Positions 1-15,753 are shown, counted from the stretch's first letter. The stretch is 64,000 nt of DNA from Spirochaetia bacterium (GCA_965198005.1 CBDAOI010000003.1:224001-288000), one strand, 5' to 3'. A program made the numbers and translations. Notes: generated from the letters alone by a model not told the origin.

Positions 1-422
1 GTGTGTGACGTGAGAGTTAGAGTTAGAGCTTACTGCCCCGTGTGTGTGTGGGGGGGGGGTAGATGAACGGAATGGGCCGATGCGGCACCCCGGGCGGCGG
101 TGCTCGGGCGCCAGTAGCGGGGGCCGGTGGCAGGGCTGCATTGCGTAGTCAGGCATCATCCGTATCCGTTCGAGTCCCCAACCCCGACATCATCGCACAC
201 CCGCGCCAAAGCGATCAAGCGCTCAATTGCACTTTTTTGCACTTTCTTCACTTTTTGTCCAGCGGCCCTGGCGCCGCTGGCGGCTGCACCACCAAGCCCG
301 CCCGGTCACGCCAGAGTCCGCCCACGGCACTGCCGGCAACTGCCTCGGTCTCGATCGCTTCGCTTTCGAAGGGCCGGCCCGCCGGCCTTGCGGGCCCGCG
401 CGAGACGGCCTACGCTGCCGCC
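1..422. repeat. Conserved non-coding region upstream of the Uma2-like nuclease (copy 1), with a GT repeat and G10 tract
   Basis: 1-60 matches 7140-7197, ~55-312 matches 7827-8062, ~252-422 matches 1617-1781, and ~358-422 matches 9227-9291. Confidence 0.85.
388..416 (+). promoter_or_regulatory. Sigma70-type promoter for a probable leaderless mRNA
   Basis: TTGCGG-17 nt-TACGCT lies 6 nt before ATG 423 with no SD. It is conserved in all three copies (TTGCAG in copy 3). Confidence 0.6.
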
Positions 423-1418
423 ATGGCCAGCACCAAGGCACCGCCCACCAAGCGCTACGAAGTATACGAAGTAACGCAACCCCGGCGCGCCCAGCCGCCG
501 GCATTCCCGGGCTGCAAGCCCGTCCGCCTGCCGCGCACCGAGATCGACCGCTTCGAGGGGCGCCTTGAGTATTGGGATGCGGCTACCGAGACCGCCTGGA
601 TCTGCGAGCCGACCACTCCCTATCACGAGCGCCCGTCGCGGCTGTTCACGAGATTGGCTGAGCTGATCGCCAGGGTGCGCGGTTCGCCGATCGAATGCTA
701 CGGCTCGATGGACCTGCTGCTGCGCGACGCCGGCGGCGAGCCGCGGCGCATCATGCAGGCGGACGAGTCGGTGTACCTGCATCCGGCGCGGGCCAAGCCG
801 GGACCTGCGGCCATGGTGGTGGGCGAGGATGACTTTCCCGACGTGGTGCTGGAAGTGGATCACACTACGGACGCGCGGCGGAGCAAGCTCGCGCTGTACG
901 AGGACTGGGGCTTTCCGGAAGTGTGGGTAGACGTGCCGGACACGCTGTCGCCGAGGCGGGCACGCGGGCGCCGCCCGGGACTGACGATTCATCTGCTGGA
1001 GCATGGTCGGTTCCGGGTTGCGGCCGAGAGCCGGGCGTTTCCCGGCTGGCGGGCGGACGAGATTCACCTGGCGCTGAACGAGCCGGCGCCATCCGCGCGC
1101 ACCAGCGCGGTGGTGGAGCGGGTCGGGGCGGCGCTGGGTGCGCGCGCAGGCACCGGCCCGGACGACGACCCGCTGCTCCGTTCGCAGCGGCGCCAGGGGT
1201 TCGAGCAGGGCCGCGCGGCAGGTCGGGCGGAAGGCCGTGCGCAGATGGTTCGTCAGATATTGCTGTCACGCGGCATTGAAGTGTCGGCGCGGTTGTCCAC
1301 CGCTACGGAGGCGGTCGCCGCGGCGGCCGAGGAGGCGCTGCTGGCGGCGGCGCTTGGCTGCGCGGATGAGGCGGAGTTCCTTGCCGCGCTCCGGCGATTG
1401 CGCGACCCGGGCGGCTGA
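423..1418 (+). CDS. Uma2/DUF820-like PD-(D/E)XK nuclease with Rpn-like C-terminal tail (copy 1)
   Basis: Motifs RLEYWD, QADESVYL, PDVVLEVDHT, KLALYEDWGFPEVW, then EQGRAAGRAEG repeats. Start set by homology to copy 3. Confidence 0.75.
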   Translation: MASTKAPPTKRYEVYEVTQPRRAQPPAFPGCKPVRLPRTEIDRFEGRLEYWDAATETAWICEPTTPYHERPSRLFTRLAELIARVRGSPIECYGSMDLLLRDAGGEPRRIMQADESVYLHPARAKPGPAAMVVGEDDFPDVVLEVDHTTDARRSKLALYEDWGFPEVWVDVPDTLSPRRARGRRPGLTIHLLEHGRFRVAAESRAFPGWRADEIHLALNEPAPSARTSAVVERVGAALGARAGTGPDDDPLLRSQRRQGFEQGRAAGRAEGRAQMVRQILLSRGIEVSARLSTATEAVAAAAEEALLAAALGCADEAEFLAALRRLRDPGG

Positions 1419-1459
1419 CCTCGCCCGCACAGCCGGACGAGCCCGAAGAGACGGCGCAC

Positions 1460-1600
1460 ATGGTTGCGGCTGCCGGCGGGCAGGCCATGGCACTGCACAC
1501 CGACGTCGCCGACCCGGCCGCGGTCGAGGCGATGGCGCAGGCAGTGGTCGACCGCTACGGCCGCCTCGATTGTGCCTTTAACGCCGCCGGTGTGGGTGGC
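1460..1600 (+). pseudogene. Internal fragment of an SDR-family oxidoreductase
   Basis: AAGGQAMALHTDVADPAAVEAMAQAVVDRYGRLDCAFNAAG, with no N- or C-terminus. Confidence 0.7.
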
Positions 1601-1781
1601 GGCCCGTGCCGACGACTTTTTTTCGGCGGCCCTGGCGCCTCTGGCGGCTGCAGTAGCGGGCTCGCCGGTCACACCAAGGTCCACGGCACTGCCGGCAACT
1701 GCCTCGGTCTCGATCTCTTCGCTTTCGAAGGGCCGGCCCGCCGGCCTTGCGGGCCCGCGCGAGACGGCCTACGCTGCCGCC

Positions 1782-2765
1782 ATGGCCAGCACCAAGGCAC
1801 CGCCAACCAGGCGCTACGAAGTATACGAAGTAGGGCAACCCCGGCACGCCCAGCCGCCGGCATTCCCGGGCTGCAAGCCCGTCCGCCTGCCGCGCACCGA
1901 GATCGACCGCTTCGAGGGGCGCCTCGAGTATTGGGATGCGGCCACCGAGACCGCCTGGATCTGCGAGCCCACCACTCCCTATCACGAGCGCCCGTCGCGG
2001 CTGTTCACGAGATTGGCTGAGCTGATCGCCAGGGTGCGCGGTTCGCCGATCGAATGCTACGGCTCGATGGACCTGCTGCTGCGCGACGCCGGCGGCGAGC
2101 CGCGGCGCATCATGCAGGCGGACGAGTCGGTGTACCTGCATCCGGCGCGGGCCAAGCCGGGACCGGCGGCCATGGTGGTGGGCGAGGACGACTTTCCCGA
2201 CGTGGTGCTGGAGGTGGATCACACCACCGACGCGCGGCGGAGCAAGCTGGCGCTGTACGAGGACTGGGGCTTTCCGGAAGTGTGGGTGGAGGTGCCGGAC
2301 ACGCTGTCGCCGAGGCGGGCACGCGGGCGCCGCCCGGGACTGACGATTCATCTGCTGGAGCATGGTCGGTTTCGGGTGGCGGCCGAGAGCCGGGCGTTTC
2401 TCGGCTGGCGGGCGGACGAGATTCACGTGGCGCTGAACGAGCCGGCGCCGTCCGCGCGCACCAGCGCGGTGGTGGAGCGGGTCGGGGCGGCGCTGGGCGC
2501 GCGCGAAGGCACCGGCCCGGACGACGACCCGCTGCTCCGTTCGCAACGGCGCCAGGGATTCGAGCAGGGTCGTGCGGCAGGTCGGGCGCAGATGGTCCGC
2601 CAGATCCTGCGGTCACGCGGCATTGAAGTGTCGGCGAGGTTCTCCACCGCCACGGAGGCGTTCGCCGCGGCGTCCGAGGAGGCGCTGCTGGCGGCGGCGC
2701 TTGGCTGCGCGGATGAGGCGGGTTTCCTTGCCGCACTCCGGCGATTCCGCGACCCGGGCGGCTGA
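1782..2765 (+). CDS. Uma2-like PD-(D/E)XK nuclease (copy 2)
   Basis: Near-identical to 423..1418, with one fewer 4-aa linker repeat. Confidence 0.75.
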   Translation: MASTKAPPTRRYEVYEVGQPRHAQPPAFPGCKPVRLPRTEIDRFEGRLEYWDAATETAWICEPTTPYHERPSRLFTRLAELIARVRGSPIECYGSMDLLLRDAGGEPRRIMQADESVYLHPARAKPGPAAMVVGEDDFPDVVLEVDHTTDARRSKLALYEDWGFPEVWVEVPDTLSPRRARGRRPGLTIHLLEHGRFRVAAESRAFLGWRADEIHVALNEPAPSARTSAVVERVGAALGAREGTGPDDDPLLRSQRRQGFEQGRAAGRAQMVRQILRSRGIEVSARFSTATEAFAAASEEALLAAALGCADEAGFLAALRRFRDPGG

Positions 2766-2836
2766 CCTCGCCCGCGCAGCCGGCGTGCCCGACGAGGCGG
2801 CATGCAGGTGGCGGACAGGCATGGCCGCCGGCCGTA

Positions 2837-3802
2837 TCAGGCTGACCGGGCGGCCTCTTGCAGGGCGCGGCGGGCGCCTTCGATGGCGCGGGCGCTCATG
2901 CCGCCGCTGCCGAGGCCGGCGCCGCCGCCGCCGCCCCGCAGCCGGGGGTCGAGCAGGTCGCGCACCGCGTCACCGAACATGTTCAGGCAGTACACCACCA
3001 CCGTGAGCGCCACCCCCGGCCACATCGCCAGGCGCGGCGCCATCTCCATGAACTGGCGCCCCTCGCGGCTCAGCATGCCGCCCCAGCTCGGCACCGTGGT
3101 CGGCAGGCCGAACCCCAGGAAGCTCAAGGACGCTTCGGCGATGATGATGCCGCCGATCGTGATCGAGAACACGACGATCACCGGCGCGGTGATGTTCGGC
3201 CACACGTGGCTCTTCAGGATGTGCCAGGGAGCGCTGCCGATGGCGCGCGCGGCCTCGAAGTAGGGATTCTCCTTGATGCCGATCACGGCGCTGCGGATCA
3301 CGCGCGAGTTGCCGATGCCGGAAGTGACGCCGAGCACGACGATGATCTGCAGGATGCCCTGGCCGACGATGGTGATGATCGTCAGCAGCAGCAACAGGCC
3401 GGGGAAGGACATCCAGGCGTCGACGAAGCGCTGCACCAGAATGTCCAGCTTGCCGCCGACGAAGCCGGCCACGCCGCCGACCAGCAGCGCCACCACGGTG
3501 CTCAGCAGGGTGGCGGCAAAGCCCACCCCGAGCGAGGTGCGGGCGCCGTACACCAGCCGGCTCAACACGTCGCGGCCGAGCTGGTCGGTGCCCAGCAGGT
3601 AGGTGGCCGACGGGTCGCCCAACCGGTCGACCAGGTGCATCTCGGCGAAGGGGAAGGGTGCCAGGACGTCGGCCAGGATGGCGATCAGCGCCAGCACCAG
3701 GACCACCACCGCGCTCGCCGCCCCGAGCGGGCGCTCCTTGAACAGTCGCCGCAGCAGGTCGAGCAGGAACGGCTGCGGTTTGGGATTATCGTTCATCGAC
3801 AC
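2837..3802 (-). CDS. Peptide/nickel ABC transporter permease (DppC/OppC-like)
   Basis: LGTDQLGRDVLSRL, EAARAIG EAA loop, EASLSFLGFG, GDAVRDLLDPR. Confidence 0.93.
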   Translation of the reverse strand: MSMNDNPKPQPFLLDLLRRLFKERPLGAASAVVVLVLALIAILADVLAPFPFAEMHLVDRLGDPSATYLLGTDQLGRDVLSRLVYGARTSLGVGFAATLLSTVVALLVGGVAGFVGGKLDILVQRFVDAWMSFPGLLLLLTIITIVGQGILQIIVVLGVTSGIGNSRVIRSAVIGIKENPYFEAARAIGSAPWHILKSHVWPNITAPVIVVFSITIGGIIIAEASLSFLGFGLPTTVPSWGGMLSREGRQFMEMAPRLAMWPGVALTVVVYCLNMFGDAVRDLLDPRLRGGGGGAGLGSGGMSARAIEGARRALQEAARSA

Positions 3803-3803
3803 C

Positions 3804-4769
3804 TCACCGGTACTGCACCCGCGGGTCGAGGTAGCCGTAGAGAATGTCGATCATCAGGTTGATCGTCATAACCGCGGTCGCGAAGAACAGGTTGATGCCC
3901 GACACCACCGGGTAGTCGCGCACCTTGAGCGCCTCGAGCATCAGTCGCCCCAGCCCCGGCAGCGCGAACATGTTCTCCATGATCACCGAGCCGCCGACCA
4001 GGATCGGGAGTTGCAGGCCGATCAGGGTCACCACCGGGATCAGCGCGTTCTTGATCACGTGCCGGAGGATGATCACCCGTTCCTTCAGTCCCTTCGCCCA
4101 GGCGGTGCGGATGAAGTCCTGGCGCAGCACCTCCAGCATCATGGTGCGCGTCATGCGCATCACGGTGGCCGACAGGTAGGTGCCCAGAATGAGGCTGGGA
4201 ATGAACAGGTGGCCGAGGTTGCGCAGCGGGTCATCGGCGAACGCCACCATGCGCAGCGGCGGCGCCCATGCCCACCAGATGGCGGGGAAGGTCAGCACCA
4301 GGGTGGCGAGCCAGAAGTTGGGCGTCGCCAGGCCGATGATGGCGATGGAGCGGCCGGCGTAGTCGCCCGCCGTGTCTTGCCGCACCGCCGAGTAGATGCC
4401 CACCGGCACGGCGATGACCAACCCGATGAGGATGGACAGGACGCCCAGCTCGATTGTGATCGGCAGCCGGCCGATGATCTTTTCCTCGACGGTATATCCG
4501 CCGAACAGCGACTCGCCCAGGGTGCCGCGCAGGAAGATGCCGCCCAGCCAGCGCACGTACTGCACGTGCGCCGGCACATCCAGCCCGAGCATGCGCTCGA
4601 CCTTCTCGCGGTCCACGTGCACCATCCCGCCCACTTCCTCCGCCAGCCGGGCCATCATGCTGTCGACGACGTCGCCGGGAAGAAAGCGCACCGACAGGAA
4701 CACCAGAACCGTCAACAGGAGGAACGTCGGGATCAGCAGCAGGACGCGGCGGATGATGTAGGTTCGCAT
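3804..4769 (-). CDS. Peptide/nickel ABC transporter permease (DppB/OppB-like)
   Basis: MRTYIIRR start, QDFIRTAWAKGL, RHVIKNALIP, LDPRVQY end. Confidence 0.93.
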   Translation of the reverse strand: MRTYIIRRVLLLIPTFLLLTVLVFLSVRFLPGDVVDSMMARLAEEVGGMVHVDREKVERMLGLDVPAHVQYVRWLGGIFLRGTLGESLFGGYTVEEKIIGRLPITIELGVLSILIGLVIAVPVGIYSAVRQDTAGDYAGRSIAIIGLATPNFWLATLVLTFPAIWWAWAPPLRMVAFADDPLRNLGHLFIPSLILGTYLSATVMRMTRTMMLEVLRQDFIRTAWAKGLKERVIILRHVIKNALIPVVTLIGLQLPILVGGSVIMENMFALPGLGRLMLEALKVRDYPVVSGINLFFATAVMTINLMIDILYGYLDPRVQYR

Positions 4770-4833
4770 TGCAGGGCGCCTGGGAAGTGGGACGGCAGCA
4801 CACGCCACCGGCCCACTCCGTCATGTGGCAGCG

Positions 4834-4859
4834 GAGCCCGCCGTTAGGCGGGCCCCTTT
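4834..4859. terminator. Intergenic GC hairpin between the SBP and permease genes
   Basis: gcccgcc-gtta-ggcgggc inverted repeat. Confidence 0.45.
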
Positions 4860-4936
4860 CAATCGCCCGTAGGGCGAGTTGATTCGTGCAGGCGCGCTGA
4901 GCGCGCCTGCAATGGAAACCGCCCCTGGCGGTTTCC

Positions 4937-6757
4937 TCAGAATCCGAGCTCCCGCTTCAGATCCTGGTCGATCCAGAGGCGCGTCAGGAGCGTTGTGAAA
5001 CCCGGCACGCCGATCGACAGCTCCCCGTTGTAGCCCTTGACCCACGGCTGGGCGACGTTGAACTGGGGGACGGGACCGGGACCGTCGATATGCCAGTGCT
5101 GGCTTACCGCGTACAGATTCGCCTCCTTGGTGAGCCGAATAATATCCTCCAGGGTGGTAGCTGCCGTGGCGGCGTCGATCATCGCGTCCATTTGCGGGTC
5201 GTTGACGCCCAATCCGTCGTTGTTCAGGCCGTAGGGGGAATTTGAGCGGTAAAAGGACTCAAGAATTTTGATATCCGCGGTCGGGTTAGCGTTTTCGCCG
5301 TGTGCAATTCCGTCTGAGGTATGCTCGCGCGTGATGGCCAGGAGCTCCGCGGCGCCATGAATGCTCATCTCGACGTCGACGCCAATCTCAGCCCAGTATC
5401 CAATGACGAGCTCCGCGTAGTTCGCATCGTAGCGTTCGAAGTATTTCAATTCGGTCTTGAAGCCATCAGGATAGCCCGCCTCGGCCAGCAGCTGCTTGGC
5501 CCGCTCCGGATCGTAGCGGTAGTACTGCTTGACCTCCTCCGGCCATTGGTCGAAGGGCGTCCCAAAGAGGCCGTCGTTGTGCACCAGTCCGTGCGGCGTC
5601 GCGTCCGCATACCCCTTGAAGTAGGTGTTGGCGATCGTCTCCCGATCAATCGCCATCTGCAGGGCCTGCCGTACCCGGAGATCGTTGAACGGCGGCCGGC
5701 TCACGGTGATGAACCGAAATGCCTGGTCGGATCGAGAGGGGCGGTCCCAGATGTTGATGTGGGGATCGGTCCTTCGCAGGCTCTCGACCTGGTCGATCTG
5801 CCTCAGCTGAGCGTCGCCGCTATTCGTCAACATATCGATTTGACCCGAGCGCAGGGCCGCGAGCCGCGCCGCCGGATCCGGTAGGATCAGGCCGACGATC
5901 TCGTCGACGTAGGGCAAGCGGTTCTCCGGGTATTTTTCGTCGAAGCCCCAATAGTTGGGATACTTAGTGTAGGTTAAACTGCTGCCATCGACGAAGTCCG
6001 TCAGCTCCATGGGCCCGGTGCCAACCAGATTCCTCCAATCCTGCATGTCGCCGTGCTGCTGGATCACCTCCGGAGGGTAGATCCAGGTGATCCACATATT
6101 GAGTAGCGCGGATCCAAAGCCGTAGGCAGGATGTGGCTTTAGAGGCCAAACGAGGTCTGGCTCTGCCAGCTTGAAGACCACCGTCGATGCGTCGGTGGCC
6201 GTAACCGATTCGATCTTGGGAAGCTGATTTGCAGCGTGCCGCGAGGCTTCGCTGAAGCCGCTACCGATCCCGTAGAGGCGATGATAGTTGAATTCGACAT
6301 CGCTGGCGGTGAGCTCGCGACCGTTCATCGGTGCTTTGTCGTGCCAACGAACGCCCGGGCGGATGTGGACGATCAGCGTGGCGGCATCCGACCATTCCCA
6401 GCTCTCCGCCAACTGTCCTCGCATGATAGACGTAGGAAAGGAAAAGAGGCGAAGGTCGTTCTCACTCCTGTCGACCGCCCAGTCCACGATGGCGAGCTGC
6501 TCGGTGACCATGCCGACGAACATTCTTGACCAGCCGCTGTTCGCCCAGGCATCAGGGTGCTCGCCCATGGCGACCACGCCGAAGGTGAGGGTCCCGCCAT
6601 ACTCGGGCGCGGTGACCATCTCGCCGGTGGATGGGTCGAGCACCATCTCCTTCTCGGCAGCGGCGGCCGGCTGGTCGCTCTCGCCGCTGGCAAACGTAAC
6701 GGTAGCCACCAGCGCGAGCGCCAGTGTCAACAAACCGATTCTGAAAACGTAGTTCAT
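4937..6757 (-). CDS. ABC transporter substrate-binding protein, family 5
   Basis: Signal peptide, PEYGGTL, LAESWE, VGTGP, DLRVRQALQMAIDR, AKQLLAEAGYPDG. GGAGG SD upstream. Confidence 0.92.
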   Translation of the reverse strand: MNYVFRIGLLTLALALVATVTFASGESDQPAAAAEKEMVLDPSTGEMVTAPEYGGTLTFGVVAMGEHPDAWANSGWSRMFVGMVTEQLAIVDWAVDRSENDLRLFSFPTSIMRGQLAESWEWSDAATLIVHIRPGVRWHDKAPMNGRELTASDVEFNYHRLYGIGSGFSEASRHAANQLPKIESVTATDASTVVFKLAEPDLVWPLKPHPAYGFGSALLNMWITWIYPPEVIQQHGDMQDWRNLVGTGPMELTDFVDGSSLTYTKYPNYWGFDEKYPENRLPYVDEIVGLILPDPAARLAALRSGQIDMLTNSGDAQLRQIDQVESLRRTDPHINIWDRPSRSDQAFRFITVSRPPFNDLRVRQALQMAIDRETIANTYFKGYADATPHGLVHNDGLFGTPFDQWPEEVKQYYRYDPERAKQLLAEAGYPDGFKTELKYFERYDANYAELVIGYWAEIGVDVEMSIHGAAELLAITREHTSDGIAHGENANPTADIKILESFYRSNSPYGLNNDGLGVNDPQMDAMIDAATAATTLEDIIRLTKEANLYAVSQHWHIDGPGPVPQFNVAQPWVKGYNGELSIGVPGFTTLLTRLWIDQDLKRELGF

Positions 6758-7139
6758 GAGAAGAACCTCCGATTCTCGATTCTTGTTCGAGAGCATGTGC
6801 TGATCCTGGTGCCGGCCCCTCGTCTGCTCTCGTTGCCTGTCTGCCGCTCTGTGTTGTGTGCGGCGCAGGCGGTTCCGACGAGGGCGACAACCTCGAACTG
6901 ACCCCGGGAGCGATCAGGCACAAGTGCCGTTGGATCGCGTCCCGCGGTGGATTACAGCTTCACGGGCACCTCCCGTATGCGTACCGGTCAGACGCAGGTC
7001 GACGCCGGTCGGAGGCGTGAACGGGTCTCGCCGGTGGTTTGTTCTGCTGTCCGGCAACGCCGGGGGTGATTGCTGACAGAGGACCAAGCAGGGCGGTGGC
7101 CGACGCGCGCGGTCGTCGGTTTACGGCGCCGGGCGCTCG

Positions 7140-8062
7140 GTGTGTGACGTGAGAGTTAGAGCTTACTGCCCCTTGTGTGTGTGTTGGGGGGGGGGGTGCA
7201 GCATAAGCGCTAACTTGTTGTGGGGGCCTACAGGGGCCATGCATGACTTTACTGTGCGACCGTACCACGGACGTGCGACTCGGATCAACCAGCCGCGTCG
7301 AAAAAATCGAAGAAATCTGGCAGCTCATGGCCCTACGGTGCGACCGTATCACGGACCCGCGACTCGCGTCAACCAGCCAGATCGAAGTAAGCTGACAACT
7401 GAGACAGCCGGCGCCGTGGCGGCTCAGCCAGCGCCCGCGAGATAGCGCCCCAAAACCGCCGCCGGGGCGCCGCTTTTGGCCCATCCCGTCCGACCGCTAG
7501 GAGTCTGTCGCAATCCGACAGACTCCTAGCGTGCCACTGGTGAACCATGCGCGCCAGTGGCAGAGCCGGTTCGATGGTGCGGGTGACCTGGCCCAGCACG
7601 AACCTGAAGTCACGCCACGCACTGGGTGGCCGCTGACGGCGCCAAGTCGTATCCCCAGGGGGAAATAGCGCTGGCATGGCGGATCAGCTTCTCGACCAGG
7701 AGCGCAACCAGCAGCTTGCCGTACAGCCACGCTTTGGCGCTGTCGTCGTCGTATTTCGGCAGGTGGCCCAACTGCGCCAACGATTTGAACCGTTTGAACA
7801 CCAACTCCACCTGCCAGGGAGGTACAGGGGGTAGACGAACGGGAGAGGCCAAAGCGGTACGCCAGGCGGCGGTGCTCGGGCGCCAGTAGGGTGGGCCGGT
7901 GGCAGGGCTGCTTTGCGTAGTCAGGCATTATCCGTATCCGTTCGAGTCCCAACCCCGATAGCATCGCACATCCCCGCCAAAGCGGTCAAGCGCTCAATTG
8001 CACTTTTTTTCCGGCGGCCCTGACGCCTCCGGCAGGCAGCACAAAGCTCGCCGGTCACGCCA
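7140..8062. repeat. Copy of the window-start upstream region, split by an IS4-family remnant
   Basis: 7140-7197 matches 1-60 (G11 tract). Homology resumes at 7827 and runs to ~8062. Confidence 0.8.
7202..7826 (-). mobile_element. IS4-family remnant (transposase C-terminus plus one end)
   Basis: WQVELVFKRFKSLAQLGHLP...AKAWLYGKLLVALL at 7610-7817, putative end CATAAGCGCTAACTT at 7202, and two imperfect ~84-bp direct repeats at ~7243-7400. Confidence 0.7.
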
Positions 8063-8176
8063 TTCCGTGCGGAAATCCTCGTCCACGTCCCGCATGGAGA
8101 GAGTGTAGTTCCAGAAGTCGACGAATACCCAAGGATGAGCGGCCCATATGGCAAGCCCGCCTACCCCGCCGCCTTG

Positions 8177-8275
8177 TGCAGGGCGCGGCGGGCGCCTTCG
8201 ATGGCGCGGGCGCTCATGCCGCCGCTGCCGAGGCCGGCGCCGCCGCCCCCCCAGGCGGGGATCGAGCAGGTCGCG
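8177..8275 (-). pseudogene. Duplicated 3' fragment of the DppC-like permease
   Basis: Near-identical to 2859-2961. Confidence 0.85.
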
Positions 8276-8294
8276 AGTGTGATAGACTTCCGGT

Positions 8295-8519
8295 GTGCCG
8301 TCATTCGCGCGCGATACACGCCCCGCAGCCGAGCGGTTTCAGACTGATGTGTATCGCAGGATGGAACCGGCGCAGAGATACTCCGTTGGCACGGAGCTCA
8401 GCGACAGCGTCAGAGACATAGCTCTGGCGGGCCTCCGCGAGCGCTTGCGCGGCTGTACGGAGCGCGCACTGCTACGGCGCTACGTGCTTGAGCACTGGGG
8501 CGTGAGCGTCGAGGAATGA
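8295..8519 (+). CDS. Small protein, probable partner of the downstream nucleotidyltransferase
   Basis: 74 aa (DTRPAAERFQ...RRMEPAQR...ELS) with an ATGA overlap into the next gene. Confidence 0.6.
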   Translation: MPSFARDTRPAAERFQTDVYRRMEPAQRYSVGTELSDSVRDIALAGLRERLRGCTERALLRRYVLEHWGVSVEE

Positions 8520-9085
8520 AGAGCCAGGGCGAGTTGCTCGGCGAAATCGCATCGCTCCTGGACGCAGCCCAGGTCCGATACATGGTTACCGGGTCGATCG
8601 CCAGCACGTACCACGGCAGACCGCGCGCTACGCAGGATGTCGACGTGGTCGTGGAGACCAACCGTGATCACCTCCTGGCTTTCGTGCGGGCTTGTGTTGC
8701 GCGTGGATTCTACGTGGACGCTGACGACGCCAAGGACGCCCTGGAGCACCGCTCGATCTTCAACGTAATCGACGTTTCCAGCGGCTACAAGGTCGACATC
8801 ATTGTCCGCAAGGATCGGCCGTTCAGCGTCGAGGAGTTCTCGCGGCGGCGCCGGGTGGAGCTGCCAACGTTTGTCGTCTCCATGGTCACCGCGGAAGACG
8901 CCATCCTCAGCAAGCTTGAATGGAACCAGGCCGGCGGCTCGGATCGCCAGTACCAAGATGCGGTGGGGATCGCCTTATCCCAAGGCGATCTGCTCGACCT
9001 CGCCTATCTCCGGCGGTGGGCGGTCGAGCTCGGAGTGGAGAACGAACTCCGGCGGCTCCTCTCCGAACGAGAACGGGACCGGTAG
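8516..9085 (+). CDS. Pol-beta-fold nucleotidyltransferase (DUF6036-like), putative TA component
   Basis: GSIA...HGRPRATQDVDVVV motif, then EDAILSKLEW and SDRQYQD. Confidence 0.75.
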   Translation: MKSQGELLGEIASLLDAAQVRYMVTGSIASTYHGRPRATQDVDVVVETNRDHLLAFVRACVARGFYVDADDAKDALEHRSIFNVIDVSSGYKVDIIVRKDRPFSVEEFSRRRRVELPTFVVSMVTAEDAILSKLEWNQAGGSDRQYQDAVGIALSQGDLLDLAYLRRWAVELGVENELRRLLSERERDR

Positions 9086-9291
9086 CGGTATCGATCGGAG
9101 CGGAAACGGGCTGAGCCAGGTCACGGATATGTGCCGTGCGGCATACCCGTCGGGTGGGCAGGCGAGTCCGCCTCGGATCTCCCCAGCCCGGATGGGTCTC
9201 GTTCGGGTAGCGGTCCTCGTCACCGGCTTCGCTTTCGAAGGGCCGGCCCGCCGGCCTTGCAGGCCCGCGCGGGACGGCCTACGCTGCCGCC

Positions 9292-10299
9292 ATGGCCAGC
9301 ACCAAGGCACCGCCCACCAGGCGGCACGAAGTATACGAAGTAGGGCAACCCCGGCACGCCCAATCGCCGGCGTTCCCGGGCTGCAAGCCCGTCCGCCTGC
9401 CGCGCACCGAGATCGACCGCTTCGAGGGGCGCCTCGAGTATTGGGATGCGGCCACCGAGACCGCCTGGATCTGCGAGCCGACCACTCCCTATCACGAGCG
9501 GCCCTCGCGGCTCCTGACGCGCCTGGCCGAGCGGATTGCCGGCGTGCGCGGTTCGCCGATCGAATGCTACGGCTCGATGGACCTGCTGCTGCGCGACGCC
9601 GGCGGCGAGCCGCGGCGCATCATGCAGGCGGACGAGTCGGTGTACCTGCATCCGGCGCAGGCCAAGCCGGGACCGGCGGCCATGGTGGTGGGCGAGGATG
9701 ACTTTCCCGACGTGGTGCTGGAGGTGGATCACACCACCGACGCGCGGCGGAGCAAGCTGGCGCTGTACGAGGACTGGGGCTTTCCGGAAGTGTGGGTGGA
9801 GGTGCCGGACACGCTGTCGCCGAGGCGGGCACGCGGGCGCCGCCCGGGACTGACGATTCATCTGCTGGAGCATGGTCGGTTCCGGGTGGCGGCCGAGAGC
9901 CGGGCGTTTCCCGGCTGGCGGGCGGACGAGATTCACCTGGCGCTGAACGAGCCGGCGCCGTCCGCGCGCACCAGCGCGGTGGTGGAGCGGGTCGGGGCGG
10001 CGCTGGGCGCGCGCGCAGGCACCGGCCCGGACGACGACCCGCTGCTCCGTTCGCAGCGGCGCCAGGGATTCGAGCAGGGTCGTGCGGAAGGCATAGCGGA
10101 AGGTCGGACGGAAGGCCGCGCGCAGATGGTCCGTCAGATATTGCTGTCACGCGGCATTGAAGTGTCGGCGCGGTTGTCCACCGCTACGGAAGCGTTCGCC
10201 GCGGCGTCCGAGGAGGCACTGCTGGCGGCGGCGCTTGGCTGCGCGGATGAGGCGGAGTTCCTTGCCGCGCTCCGGCGATTGCGCGACCAGGGCGGCTGA
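9292..10299 (+). CDS. Uma2-like PD-(D/E)XK nuclease (copy 3)
   Basis: Near-identical to copies 1 and 2, with the longest linker EQGRAEGIAEGRTEG. Confidence 0.75.
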   Translation: MASTKAPPTRRHEVYEVGQPRHAQSPAFPGCKPVRLPRTEIDRFEGRLEYWDAATETAWICEPTTPYHERPSRLLTRLAERIAGVRGSPIECYGSMDLLLRDAGGEPRRIMQADESVYLHPAQAKPGPAAMVVGEDDFPDVVLEVDHTTDARRSKLALYEDWGFPEVWVEVPDTLSPRRARGRRPGLTIHLLEHGRFRVAAESRAFPGWRADEIHLALNEPAPSARTSAVVERVGAALGARAGTGPDDDPLLRSQRRQGFEQGRAEGIAEGRTEGRAQMVRQILLSRGIEVSARLSTATEAFAAASEEALLAAALGCADEAEFLAALRRLRDQGG

Positions 10300-10395
10300 C
10301 CTCGGCCGCGCCGGCGGCTTGAGCTGCCTGCTTGCGCTGCGCGGCGCCCGAGACGCACTATGGGGGCCACGCCACACACCCGGAGGCAGCGACAG

Positions 10396-12352
<1,957 letters not shown>

Positions 12353-12364
12353 CCGCCGCTGCCC

Positions 12365-12625
12365 ATGCCGGTCGTCGCGCTGTTCCACGGCATCCGCATT
12401 CTCGTGTACTGGAACGACCACGACCCGCCGCACTTTCACGCCCAGTACGCGGAGCACGAGGCCAAGGTGGACACGCGCCGCGGCATCGTGACCGCCGGCT
12501 ACCTGCCGCGGCGGCAGCTCCGGCTGGTGCTCGCCTGGGCCGAGCTGCACGGCGACGAGCTGATGCAGAACTGGGAGCTGGCGCGCGCCGGGCAGCCGTT
12601 GCGCTCGATTCAGGGGCTGGCGTGA
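12365..12625 (+). CDS. DUF4160 domain protein (TA-like)
   Basis: MPVVALFHGIRILVYWNDHDPPHFHAQY...WAELHGDELMQNW. Confidence 0.88.
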   Translation: MPVVALFHGIRILVYWNDHDPPHFHAQYAEHEAKVDTRRGIVTAGYLPRRQLRLVLAWAELHGDELMQNWELARAGQPLRSIQGLA

Positions 12626-12948
12626 TCGACCACCCCAACTACATGCCTGAGGTGCTGCAGGTGATCGCGGCGCCCGGCGAAGGCTATCTCATCCTGCTCT
12701 ACTTCGACGACGGCTCCATTCACCGGTTCGACGTGGCGCCGCTGCTCGACCAGCCGGTGTTTCGTCCGCTGCGCGACCGCGCCCGGTTCCGGCGTGCGCT
12801 CACCGTAATGAACGGCACCGCCGCCTGGGACCTCGCCGGCACCCGCGACGAGACCCGCTGCATCGACCTCGACCCCCTGGTCCTCTACCGCACCACCCCC
12901 GAGATCGACGAACCCGCCTGGGTAGTACGCGGCACCGGCGGCGGGTAG
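12622..12948 (+). CDS. DUF2442 domain protein
   Basis: LILLYFDDG...FRPLRDRARF...GTAAW...IDLDPLVLY, overlapping the DUF4160 stop. Confidence 0.85.
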   Translation: MIDHPNYMPEVLQVIAAPGEGYLILLYFDDGSIHRFDVAPLLDQPVFRPLRDRARFRRALTVMNGTAAWDLAGTRDETRCIDLDPLVLYRTTPEIDEPAWVVRGTGGG

Positions 12949-13042
12949 GAAACCATGATCGCCGCCCGTGGCGCCGTGGCGAGAACGACACCGACCTTGG
13001 TCCAGCTCTCGACCGCCCGCCGCGCCCGCGGGAGTCCGTAGA

Positions 13043-14131
13043 TCACTTGCCGCCAGATGCGGCAAGCAGACCCAGCCGGTAGTAGGAATCGACCGTGGCA
13101 CGGATGGTGGCGTCGACGTCGTAGGGCGCCAGGCCGAGCTCCTGCATCGCCAGCAGGCAGTAGGAGCGCGGCTTGTCGTAGGTCGCCTGTGCCGGCCGAT
13201 CGCCCTGCATCTCCTCGCCGCCTACCTCCTCCACTCCGGGATAGAGCTCCCGCAGGCGCCGCTGCAACTGCCAGGTGAACAGCTCGCCGGTGCGGTCGCG
13301 TGCCGAGAGGATGTAGCGCGAGCCGTTCGCGGCCGTGCCGCGCTCGGCCGCGAGGCGGTGGGCTGTCCCCACGTCGCGCACATCGACGATGTTCCACAAC
13401 ATGCGGCCCCCCGCGCTCTTCTGGTACTGCTTCCCCGCCAGCATGAAACCGATCCACTGCTGCCAGCTATTCGGTTGGTCGTGGTTGGGACACATCAGTG
13501 GGCCGATGACGTGCACCGGCAGGATCGCCATCGCCTCGAAGCTGCCCTCCTCGGCGGCGGCCTGGTAAATCATGCGCTCGGTGTTGGCCTTCGCCATGGC
13601 GTAGGCCAGATCGCGGTTCTCGGGAATGCGATCCTCGGTCCATCTGCCCTCATATGCCTCGAGGTTGTCGCCACACCAGTCCTTCTCGGTGAAGACGTAG
13701 CCTTCCGGTCGCGGATGGCTGACCGCGGCAAACGAGCTGGTGAACACGAAGCGCTTCAGGTTGCCCGACTTCCGCGCCGAGGCCAGGACGTGGTCGTTCT
13801 CGGTAAAGCAGCCGTCGTACACCTGTTGCGGTTGCTCGCGGTTGTAGCCGACGGTGGCGCCGACGTGCAGCACCGCGCTGCAGCCGGCAAACGCCGCGTC
13901 GTAGCTGCCGCGGTCGAACAGGTCGCCGCGAAACAGCTCGACCCGACCGCGCAGGTCGGGGTCATCGTTGAGGGTGGTCAGGTGGTCGACCTTCGCCGGG
14001 TTGGCCAGATCGCGCACGCAGGCATGGACGAGATAGCCCTGCCGCATCAAGTCGTAGACGGTCCAGGATCCGATGTAGCCGCTGGCGCCGGTAACGGCCA
14101 CCGGGCCGTCGGCAGGTGAGATGGCACTCAT
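13043..14131 (-). CDS. NAD-dependent epimerase/dehydratase (extended SDR, aldehyde/flavonoid-reductase-like)
   Basis: TGASGYIG, FVFTSSFAA, YAMAK, VDVRDV. Confidence 0.88.
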   Translation of the reverse strand: MSAISPADGPVAVTGASGYIGSWTVYDLMRQGYLVHACVRDLANPAKVDHLTTLNDDPDLRGRVELFRGDLFDRGSYDAAFAGCSAVLHVGATVGYNREQPQQVYDGCFTENDHVLASARKSGNLKRFVFTSSFAAVSHPRPEGYVFTEKDWCGDNLEAYEGRWTEDRIPENRDLAYAMAKANTERMIYQAAAEEGSFEAMAILPVHVIGPLMCPNHDQPNSWQQWIGFMLAGKQYQKSAGGRMLWNIVDVRDVGTAHRLAAERGTAANGSRYILSARDRTGELFTWQLQRRLRELYPGVEEVGGEEMQGDRPAQATYDKPRSYCLLAMQELGLAPYDVDATIRATVDSYYRLGLLAASGGK

Positions 14132-14254
14132 GCTCGTGGCGTGTCCTTCATTCGTTCAGTTGTACCACGGTGGGCGTGGGTCGGTCGAGTGGAACTTCCC
14201 CACATGGTCCTGCATGAAAGCGTCGGCGGGACACGATGCGGCTCTCAGGTTCAT

Positions 14255-14316
14255 CATCAAGCCGGCCCGTCGATCGCTTCGAGGTACAGGTCCACTGCCT
14301 TGGCGGGAACGGGCGC
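14255..14316 (-). repeat. Diverged duplicate of the last ~19 codons and stop of the ABC ATPase gene at 15888
   Basis: gtcgatcgcttcgaggtacaggtccactgccttggcggg is identical to 15900-15938. Confidence 0.85.
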
Positions 14317-14565
14317 TACGAGATCGCGGTGGAGGATTCGACCAGCCACGGGCGGCTGGACATGGCGGTGCGGACGGGCGGGCACGTGTACCTGTTCGAG
14401 TTCAAGGTGGTGGAGATGGCGCCGCCGGGATCGGCGCTGGCGCAGCTGCGAGAGCGCGACTACGCGGCCAAGTACCGGGATCGGAGCGAACCGATCCATC
14501 TGATAGGCGTGGAGTTCAGCCGCGAGACGCGCAACCTGACGACGTTCAAGGTGGCGGACGGCTGA
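14317..14565 (+). pseudogene. C-terminal PD-(D/E)XK domain fragment of an AAA-ATPase-nuclease fusion
   Basis: GRLDMAV...VYLFEFK...ALAQLRERDYAAKY...IHLIGVEFS. Confidence 0.75.
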
Positions 14566-15515: not shown

Positions 15516-15753
15516 CGGCTCCATTCACCGGTTCGACGTGGCGCCGCTGCTCGACCAGCCGGTGTTTCGTCCGCTGCGCGACCGCGCCCGGTTCCGGCGT
15601 GCGCTCACCGTAATGAACGGCACCGCCGCCTGGGACCTCGCCGGCACCCGCGACGAGACCCGCTGCATCGGCCTCGACCCCCTGGTCCTCTACCGCACCA
15701 CCCCCGAAATCGGCGAACCCGCCTGGGTAGCCCGCGGCGCCGGCGGCGGGTGA
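15516..15753 (+). pseudogene. 5'-truncated duplicate of the DUF2442 gene
   Basis: 238 bp nearly identical to 12711-12948. Confidence 0.9.

Follow-up and report, generated by a model that had tools for sequence, protein, structure and literature searches.

Uma2-like nuclease genes interleaved with dpp operons in a Spirochaetia bacterium: a lineage-specific array with signs of gene conversion between its copies

Why does a bacterium carry the same small nuclease-like gene three times in 10 kb, and what keeps the copies alike? The question is raised by a stretch of 64,000 nucleotides from a Spirochaetia bacterium (GCA_965198005.1, CBDAOI010000003.1:224001-288000), hereafter called the window, which corresponds to G000:C3:224001-288000 in an assembly of 4.89 Mb with 66% G+C and four contigs (C1-C4; G000 is our label for this genome). 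A previous reading of this DNA without database searches (the sequence-only reading) had pointed out three intact, near-identical genes of the Uma2-like PD-(D/E)XK type near the left end of the window, and had proposed that the unit is amplifying or actively retained, either as a transposase-free mobile or addiction cassette or as a passenger of tandemly duplicated dpp (peptide transporter) operons. The analysis reported here leads to a different reading, to which we give a probability of about 0.6: these genes would be lineage-specific Uma2 units in an old array interleaved with dpp operons, kept alike by gene conversion and segmental duplication and maintained by purifying selection.

The three genes are indeed intact, and their product matches the Pfam family Uma2 (PF05685) with 31.7 bits (curated cut-off 27; E 1.3e-7; residues 45-169). 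They belong to a lineage-specific subfamily of the Uma2 (COG4636/DUF820) PD-(D/E)XK nuclease-like proteins of a high-GC bacterium. The window copies are labelled C1, C2 and D, those to the left of the window A and B, and those elsewhere in the genome E to I. The features of the three window units are the following (window coordinates, strand in parentheses):

357-422 (+): conserved upstream block of copy 1, with hexamers TTGCGG (388-393) and TACGCT (411-416), 17 nt apart, the second 6 nt from the ATG
423-1418 (+): Uma2 copy 1 (copy C1), 331 aa, intact
1197-1241 (+): in-frame 12-bp (G-x-x-x) repeat tract of copy 1; the number of units varies between copies
1615-1781 (+): partial dppA-5' element (from about position 250; see below), then the upstream block of copy 2, with hexamers at 1747-1752 and 1770-1775
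1782-2765 (+): Uma2 copy 2 (copy C2), 327 aa, intact; about 98% identical to copy B, adjacent dppC included
2556-2588 (+): the same repeat tract in copy 2
9226-9291 (+): conserved upstream block of copy 3, with hexamers TTGCAG (9257-9262) and TACGCT (9280-9285)
9292-10299 (+): Uma2 copy 3 (copy D), 335 aa, intact; homology to the other copies stops at about 10317
10066-10122 (+): the same repeat tract in copy 3

The three genes are 93-95% identical to one another, and the direct repeats that link them in a self-comparison are 93-97% identical. A BLAST search of the unit against the whole genome revealed two more intact Uma2 genes just left of the window, namely A (C3:212935-213954) and B (C3:218785-219768), so that five intact copies lie within 21 kb (C3:212935-234299), alternating with three paralogous dppABC operons. 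About five further copies are dispersed: E on contig C1, F and G on contig C4 (both broken), H on contig C4 (approximately 72-75% identical at the protein level) and I on contig C2 (56% identical); seven additional Uma2 fragments were also found. The three window genes are part of this larger array and of this dispersed family.

The order of the array was established by self-comparison of C3:200-240 kb and by tblastn with the DppA, DppB and DppC proteins of the window. It comprises, from left to right, dpp operon remnants, Uma2-A facing dppCBA(A), Uma2-B facing dppCBA(B), and Uma2-C1 and Uma2-C2 facing dppCBA(C); the right part, after dppCBA(C), is made up of repeats with an insertion sequence (IS) remnant, a dppC 3' remnant, a small open reading frame (ORF) with a nucleotidyltransferase-like ORF, Uma2-D and acs. 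Orientation follows a rule, Uma2 being divergent from dppA and convergent with dppC.

The ends of the repeated unit were mapped by aligning ten genomic copies with 500-bp flanks. The common block begins at window position 357 in D, 366 in A, 367 in E and 382-390 in G; it ends at the stop codon in A, 5 bp after it in E, 10 bp after it in G and 18 bp after it in B, C1, C2, D and F (window 1418, 1423, 1428 and 1436, respectively). The repeated unit therefore consists of one ORF flanked by 35-60 bp on its 5' side and by no more than 18 bp on its 3' side, and the earlier observation that homology stops close behind the stop codon holds, at 0-18 bp. The approximately 420 bp of upstream DNA that had been described as shared do show similarity, but only the 35-60 bp next to the gene belong to the unit, the remainder (about 50-340) being the dppA-5' element. 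Homology between species extends from 388 (35 bp before the ATG) to about 1419-1438. The ends of the supposed cassette thus match the limits of the between-species block, which suggests that they are simply the ends of the only block conserved by selection.

The upstream block has a constant layout, TTGC(A/G)G, 17 nt, TACGCT, 6 nt and ATG. A looser form of this pattern (TTGNNN-N16-18-TANNNT-N5-8-ATG) occurs at the expected place in 59 of the 67 family genes, and 77 matches to it, those 59 included, are present on both strands of 652 kb; the spacers of this promoter-like pattern are unlike between clades. The hexamer pair is a putative promoter and, as it ends only 6 nt before the ATG, a leaderless mRNA is suggested. 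Each Uma2 gene would accordingly be a compact and self-sufficient expression unit, as far as this predicted promoter is concerned. Terminator-like sites number five, for a chance expectation of 4.6. Structured RNAs were sought as well, the upstream region having been singled out for such a check: no Rfam family matches window 1-12000 at E ≤1, ARAGORN finds no tRNA or tmRNA in window 1-10400, and the three upstream blocks fold no better than their shuffles (z-scores 0.43, -0.41 and -1.0).

All five intact copies are under purifying selection. Indeed, ratios of non-synonymous to synonymous substitution rates (dN/dS, Nei-Gojobori method) are between 0.16 and 0.25 in all ten pairs (dS 0.035-0.154), and between 0.26 and 0.38 in 15 comparisons of copy D with genes of congeners (dS 0.27-0.68). 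Together with the preserved catalytic signature, these values bear out the part of the sequence-only reading that took the unit to be actively retained.

The resemblance between the copies is at odds with the history of their flanks. In a maximum-likelihood tree of 20 genes (three rows duplicating other loci having been dropped), the five G000 copies form one clade with a support of 1.0. At the level of the adjoining dppC genes, dppC_A and dppC_B are only 68% identical, whereas dppC_A is 82% identical to its positional counterpart in congener G006 and dppC_B is 90% and 93.6% identical to its positional counterparts in G003 and G001. Conversely, Uma2_A is 92.3% identical to Uma2_B, while identity to the Uma2 genes found at the matching positions of G006 and G003 is only 87.6% and 84.8%. 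The copies are also mosaics of one another. The 30 informative sites support incompatible partitions ({C1,D} at eight sites, {A,C1} at eight and {B,C2} at seven), the four-gamete test is failed by 205 of the 435 site pairs, and like partitions cluster along the gene, ten of the 29 neighbouring pairs being identical (a value reached in 388 of 20000 shuffles). Between B and C2, identity decreases stepwise, from about 98% over Uma2 and dppC (a tract of approximately 2 kb) to about 92% in dppB and about 80% in dppA, and B and C1 share 97.7% identity along 384 bp of upstream sequence. This mosaicism and the conflict between gene and flank indicate gene conversion.

The subfamily is widespread in related genomes. 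Of 23 genomes belonging to the same family, 20 have matches (E up to 1e-10), as many as 32 in a single genome; with the same query, none was obtained in 17 genomes, some of them incomplete, from the other seven families of the order. The alternating dpp/Uma2 order is found in the congeners G001, G003, G005 and G006, where the homologues are convergent with dppC or lie between dpp operons; in G001, a tandem Uma2 pair stands beside a dppC whose product is 95% identical to that of the window. In a sister clade (approximately 60% identical), the genes form pure head-to-tail arrays, with no dpp match in the G018, G020, G022 and G023 loci. G020 encodes 16 Uma2 copies in 47 kb (C1:49001-96000; loci L019-L021), and more arrays occur in L027-L030. 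These sister-clade arrays show two alternating upstream variants, in which the hexamers and their spacing are kept.

At the protein level, all 38 aligned members match Pfam Uma2 (E up to 1). P139, E144, D146 and K155 are invariant in this alignment and D140 is at least 90% conserved; these residues align with the PD..E..K of the solved protein 9y1l and fit the PD-ExD-K variant. The Uma2 signature is PD-ExX-K with the lysine on the following helix, and the PD-ExD-K variant has been described for COG4636 (Feder and Bujnicki 2005, PMC551604, in the portions drawn on here). In an AlphaFold2 model (mean predicted local distance difference test score, pLDDT, 70.7), the nuclease core has the restriction-endonuclease-like fold of solved family members, and the top six Foldseek chains, from four entries, are all Uma2/DUF820 structures (9y1l, 6okh, 3ot2 and 1wdj; E 4e-6 to 2e-2). 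According to the model, this N-terminal core is followed by a small beta/alpha middle subdomain, a long G-x-x-x repeat helix and a helical bundle, the C-terminal extension amounting to about 160 residues. A weak PADLOC match to the candidate single-gene defence model PDC-S17 (E 5.6e-4, 17.4 bits) covers the catalytic core. The protein is predicted to be a conflict-type or selfish DNA nuclease, activity and cellular role both being predictions. No biochemical assay of any family member is reported in the consulted portions of the family literature (PMC551604, PMC1274311 and PMC3424549).

The repeat of the tail has a 12-bp unit (4 residues), present in 0 to about 13 units across the family, and a profile of the last approximately 90 residues (repeat helix and bundle) retrieved only 398 cluster representatives among 1.84 billion. 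Of these, 55 were scanned: 20 match Uma2 at E ≤0.01 and none matches DUF4351; one ankyrin and one DUF805 protein among the profile matches look repeat-driven. Several assignments of the tail were rejected, namely Yae1_N (E 0.006-0.12) and FliH (E 0.005-0.04), which are weak repeat-driven matches in Pfam, NCBIfam and PHROGs; an AAA-lid-like bundle, for which a fold of the tail alone (pLDDT 80.5) gave Z ≤6.7, within noise for helical models; and look-alikes in the Atlas, with scores of 0.82-0.85, under the level of 0.9 that counts. DUF4351 (PF14261) matches none of the 38 members at E up to 1, and a search of the genome with this model returned only paralogue I, at 13 bits and E 0.57 (cut-off 25 bits). 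A member of a G023 array (L029:18759-18977) retains the nuclease core and the beginning of the repeat, but has another short helical tail thereafter, which suggests that the tails are exchangeable modules.

Two components of the dpp neighbourhood are needed to weigh the possible explanations, the operon of the window and the element upstream of dppA:

2837-6796 (-): dpp operon, with dppC (2837-3802), dppB (3804-4808) and dppA (4937-6796), convergent with copy 2
50-340 (unstranded): dppA-5' element, dispersed and non-coding, beginning after a poly-G run and outside the nuclease unit
7827-8062 (unstranded): another dppA-5' element, sharing 81% identity with window 55-313

Fourteen of the 15 genomic matches of the dppA-5' element are located 230-2130 bp upstream of a divergent dppA, and some dppA genes with the element have no Uma2 nearby; the element belongs to the dpp operons and not to the nuclease unit. 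It measures about 230-290 nt and is 73-98% identical at the DNA level upstream of at least 14 dppA genes whose products are only 43-50% identical. Further copies are present at C1:194166, C1:215707, C2:465505, C3:891121, C3:977186, C4:1295478 and C4:2246028. No Rfam or tRNA match was obtained for it. A common regulatory region and an RNA are both conceivable, although the fold z-scores of the element's alignment against column shuffles (-2.1, plus strand; -0.87, minus strand) do not make a convincing case for the latter. The peptide ATP-binding cassette transporters (dpp/opp-type) have expanded in G000, with 134 near-full-length dppB paralogues, and dpp matches, many of them fragments, account for approximately 12% of the 4.9-Mb genome.

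Could the repeated genes be a single gene assembled several times? Small indels do exist: acs (acetyl-CoA synthetase, 10360-12352) is frameshifted near 11265, and two DNA runs of different studies yield contigs that lack one base there; its absence would restore a single frame, and the frameshift probably stems from an indel in the assembly. The base at 321 is likewise absent from both DNA runs, and one of them also differs at 95. Nevertheless, the copies are about 6% apart and have different flanks, and the same arrangement occurs in related genomes. Contigs of the two DNA runs match 8218-9255 and 7788/7817-8206, which are unique junction stretches, with 0-2 differences, one of these runs matches 10281-10613, across the 3' end of copy D, with none, and both cover the bin of the junction between copies 1 and 2. 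Since the copies differ to this extent and both runs agree at unique stretches, an artefact, which the sequence-only reading had named as its own possible undoing, is extremely unlikely.

A word index of public runs places the stretch in 24 runs of 10 studies, including metatranscriptomes labelled 'sponge metagenome', and the close homologues at NCBI carry the organism names 'Spirochaetaceae bacterium' (three rows) and 'Deltaproteobacteria bacterium' (one row); the host is probably a sponge-associated spirochaete. RNA contigs from two sponge metatranscriptome runs cover 2507-2721 and 2658-2816, with depth in other ORF bins; cover is nil in bins 1657-2070 and 7867-8280 and next to nil in 1243-1656. 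As these data are contigs, level, strand and start of transcription cannot be read from them.

A simple account of the array is that Uma2 was carried along by recent duplication of whole dpp and Uma2 units, with no later exchange. Units B and C do share 3.2 kb at 94.6% over Uma2, dppC and dppB, and copy F, on another contig, also has the upstream element and an adjacent dppA, and shares the stretch behind the stop codon. This account is contradicted for copies A, C1 and D, however: the dpp proteins of unit A are only 47-70% identical to those of unit C, yet their Uma2 genes share 93%; no dpp operon is present downstream of copy D; and the stepwise fall in identity between B and C and the conflict of the informative sites with any single tree run against it too. 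The passenger idea of the sequence-only reading therefore stands for the B/C2 pair, over about 2 kb at about 98% including dppC, and is too simple for the rest; as a general explanation it is improbable. The opposite proposal, in which Uma2 is a functional partner of the dpp operons, for instance a DNA-binding regulator divergent from dppA, would explain why the order of divergent dppA, Uma2 and convergent dppC recurs in four congeners, even for the 56%-identical paralogue I, with a conserved non-coding element between dppA and Uma2. It seems very unlikely when set against the more than tenfold excess of near-full-length dppB paralogues over the only approximately ten Uma2 genes, the sister-clade arrays devoid of dpp, the conservation of the catalytic residues and the presence of the non-coding element upstream of dppA genes that lack Uma2.

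A stronger rival is a selfish, nuclease-driven cassette, in which the nuclease would cut or nick at or near sister or empty sites and repair of the break would copy promoter and ORF in a homing-like manner, so that the unit spreads and is homogenised; such a mechanism has been proposed for the Uma2 family (PMC551604, in the portions consulted). The compactness and self-sufficiency of the unit agree with it, as do ends that fall within a narrow range in copies with unrelated flanks (A, D, E and G), Uma2 paralogues that are 84-92% alike where the adjoining dppC genes are 68-72% alike, within and between species, and the numbers reached in related genomes. Eleven of the 17 Uma2 loci, which are not independent, also lie within 800 bp of a dpp gene, compared with about a fifth of the genome. 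On the other hand, the ends are scattered over as much as about 30 bp, without a target-site signature, and they equal the limits of the block conserved between species. Neither target duplications nor terminal repeats are apparent, with no inverted repeat pair of at least 40 bp in window 1-14000, and the ten-copy alignment contains no partner gene within the repeated unit, as a toxin-antitoxin or addiction module would have. No clean pair of occupied and empty sites was found at the two places searched, locus G and the region upstream of acs, both of which are rearranged. Locus G, which has a non-dpp context, is a deletion junction relative to ten congeners, one of which has a related copy inside the missing interval. 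In the 1.5 kb preceding acs, Uma2 is absent from all nine congeners compared, but these also disagree among themselves in their upstream sequences, and the homology of their acs loci to the window begins at 10323-10332. The nuclease activity on which this explanation depends is itself a prediction. Moreover, exchange is not restricted to the cassette, since dppC lies within a recent conversion tract too. The transposase-free mobile or addiction cassette of the sequence-only reading is thus not borne out, and selfish spread of this kind is possible but rather unlikely.

We therefore favour the reading of an old array of lineage-specific Uma2 units, interleaved with dpp operons. According to this reading, gene conversion would act repeatedly and would be confined to the only block common to the units (promoter and ORF); larger duplications or conversions, reaching into dppC or the 5' region of dppA, would occur occasionally; purifying selection would keep each copy functional; and occasional cleavage by the nuclease may itself favour recombination. 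The array would be old, given that equivalent positions are occupied in other species. Several points weigh against this reading. The conflict between gene and flank is equally predicted by repeated insertion of a cassette beside existing dpp operons, and no conversion event was caught directly. Positions were paired between species through the identity of the flanking dppC genes, and the units are not arranged collinearly from one species to the next. With only five copies, the clustering of partitions gives the mosaicism no more than moderate statistical support (388/20000). Copies G and H are 8.5 and 24 kb from any dpp gene, so that something has moved the gene at least occasionally. An Escherichia coli-type promoter scanner returned no promoter, the hexamer pair being below its threshold, and the RNA contigs are a weak hint of transcription, DNA carry-over being possible. 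Lastly, we know of no Uma2 protein with a known biochemical function.

A bolder reading makes the nuclease the engine of the process: it would cut in or beside sister units, repair would overwrite diverged copies ('paralogue homing'), and unequal recombination would be driven among the more than 130 dpp operons. We regard this reading as distinctly unlikely; if true, the nuclease would have a part in the growth and turnover of the peptide-transporter repertoire of this symbiont lineage.

The remaining features of the array within the window are as follows:

1437-1614 (+): filler between copies 1 and 2, with a 74% match to C4:1140710-1140868; a fragment of a short-chain dehydrogenase gene, read by eye from a motif and not by hidden Markov model
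7195-7826 (unstranded): mosaic of genome-wide repeats, interrupting the dppA upstream region
7610-7852 (-): C-terminal remnant of a DDE transposase, an IS remnant in the repeat mosaic
8168-8275 (-): dppC 3'-end remnant, approximately 90% identical to 2850-2962
8295-9085 (+): small ORF (8295-8519) and, overlapping it, an ORF resembling nucleotidyltransferases (8516-9085); AbiEii matched weakly, at E 0.0014, short of the cut-off

The spacer at 1437-1614 is filler DNA that marks a past rearrangement. Two later insertions had been postulated before copy 3; the left one corresponds to the repeat mosaic with its IS remnant (7195-7826), while 8063-9226 is no simple insertion, being composed of the dppC remnant and the ORF pair. 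Decay of the neighbouring genes, which had also been noted, is partly real, the exception being acs, with its probable assembly indel. Within the mosaic, 7443-7531 is a short repeat (about 85 bp) found dozens of times in the genome, which looks like a miniature insertion element. In contigs of two DNA runs and one RNA run, 7442 is directly followed by 7527, with 84 bp omitted; these contigs derive either from insert-free repeat copies elsewhere or from a strain without the insert.

The ORF pair at 8295-9085 has no NCBIfam or PADLOC match and is possibly toxin-antitoxin-like. The small gene pairs beside Uma2 genes differ from copy to copy. Paralogue I is preceded by a DUF2204/DUF6036 nucleotidyltransferase (L017:2304-3092), and the tandem pair of G001 (L031) encloses a dppC remnant and a ribbon-helix-helix antitoxin/RelE-like toxin pair, as read by eye. 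To the right of acs, a DUF4160/DUF2442 gene pair and a PDDEXK_9 nuclease-like gene are present (12365-12948 and 14236-14565), as well as a 236-bp repeat whose two copies (12711-12946 and 15516-15751) are 97% identical and 2.8 kb apart.

Uma2 is, to our knowledge, among the largest bacterial protein families without known function. The locus offers a natural series for the selfish-nuclease idea, with five intact copies about 6% apart that differ in the length of the repeat helix, a simple putative promoter, a recurrent dpp partner and counterparts at equivalent positions in sister species. DNA cleavage by the protein, and a role of such cleavage in gene conversion, could both be put to the test on this series.

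Layouts resembling the present one are known outside the family. The Rpn (YhgA-like) recombination-promoting nucleases are multi-copy PD-(D/E)XK proteins with a glycine-spaced repeat and a small helical tail of the DUF4351 type; the likeness in layout is accompanied by a different nuclease family, and the DUF4351 model is unmatched here. Free-standing homing endonuclease genes are likewise small nuclease genes with their own promoter and recombinational copying in the absence of a transposase, but in the present case no defined target site, no occupied/empty allele pair and no intron, intein or phage context was found.

The closest parallels are within Uma2 itself. Proliferation within genomes, tandem duplicates, within-genome monophyly and the selfish-nuclease hypothesis were presented by Feder and Bujnicki (2005, PMC551604), 15 Uma2 paralogues were reported in Thermus (Omelchenko et al. 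2005, PMC1274311), and the family has a row in the compilation of Steczkiewicz et al. (2012, PMC3424549), each in the portions consulted. In the Uma2 literature, sponges included, as represented mainly by titles and abstracts, no functional study and no description of this subfamily were found. In the light of these partial sources, the present genes resemble the proliferations of cyanobacteria and Thermus in family and fold, in their many paralogues, some of them in tandem, in their within-genome monophyly, and in having no methyltransferase or transposase partner and no assigned function. They differ in their recurrent dppABC neighbours, where the consulted portions of the 2005 survey (PMC551604) give no recurrent ones; from the cyanobacterial and Thermus proteins in the C-terminal extension of about 160 residues (middle subdomain, variable repeat helix and bundle); and from the cyanobacterial ones in belonging to a high-GC, sponge-associated lineage. 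The recurrent dpp partnership, the C-terminal extension, the compact promoter, putatively of the leaderless type, and the conflict between gene and flank are particular to this locus, which extends a known behaviour of the Uma2 family to one more lineage, with a C-terminal variant, and does not reveal a new kind of system.

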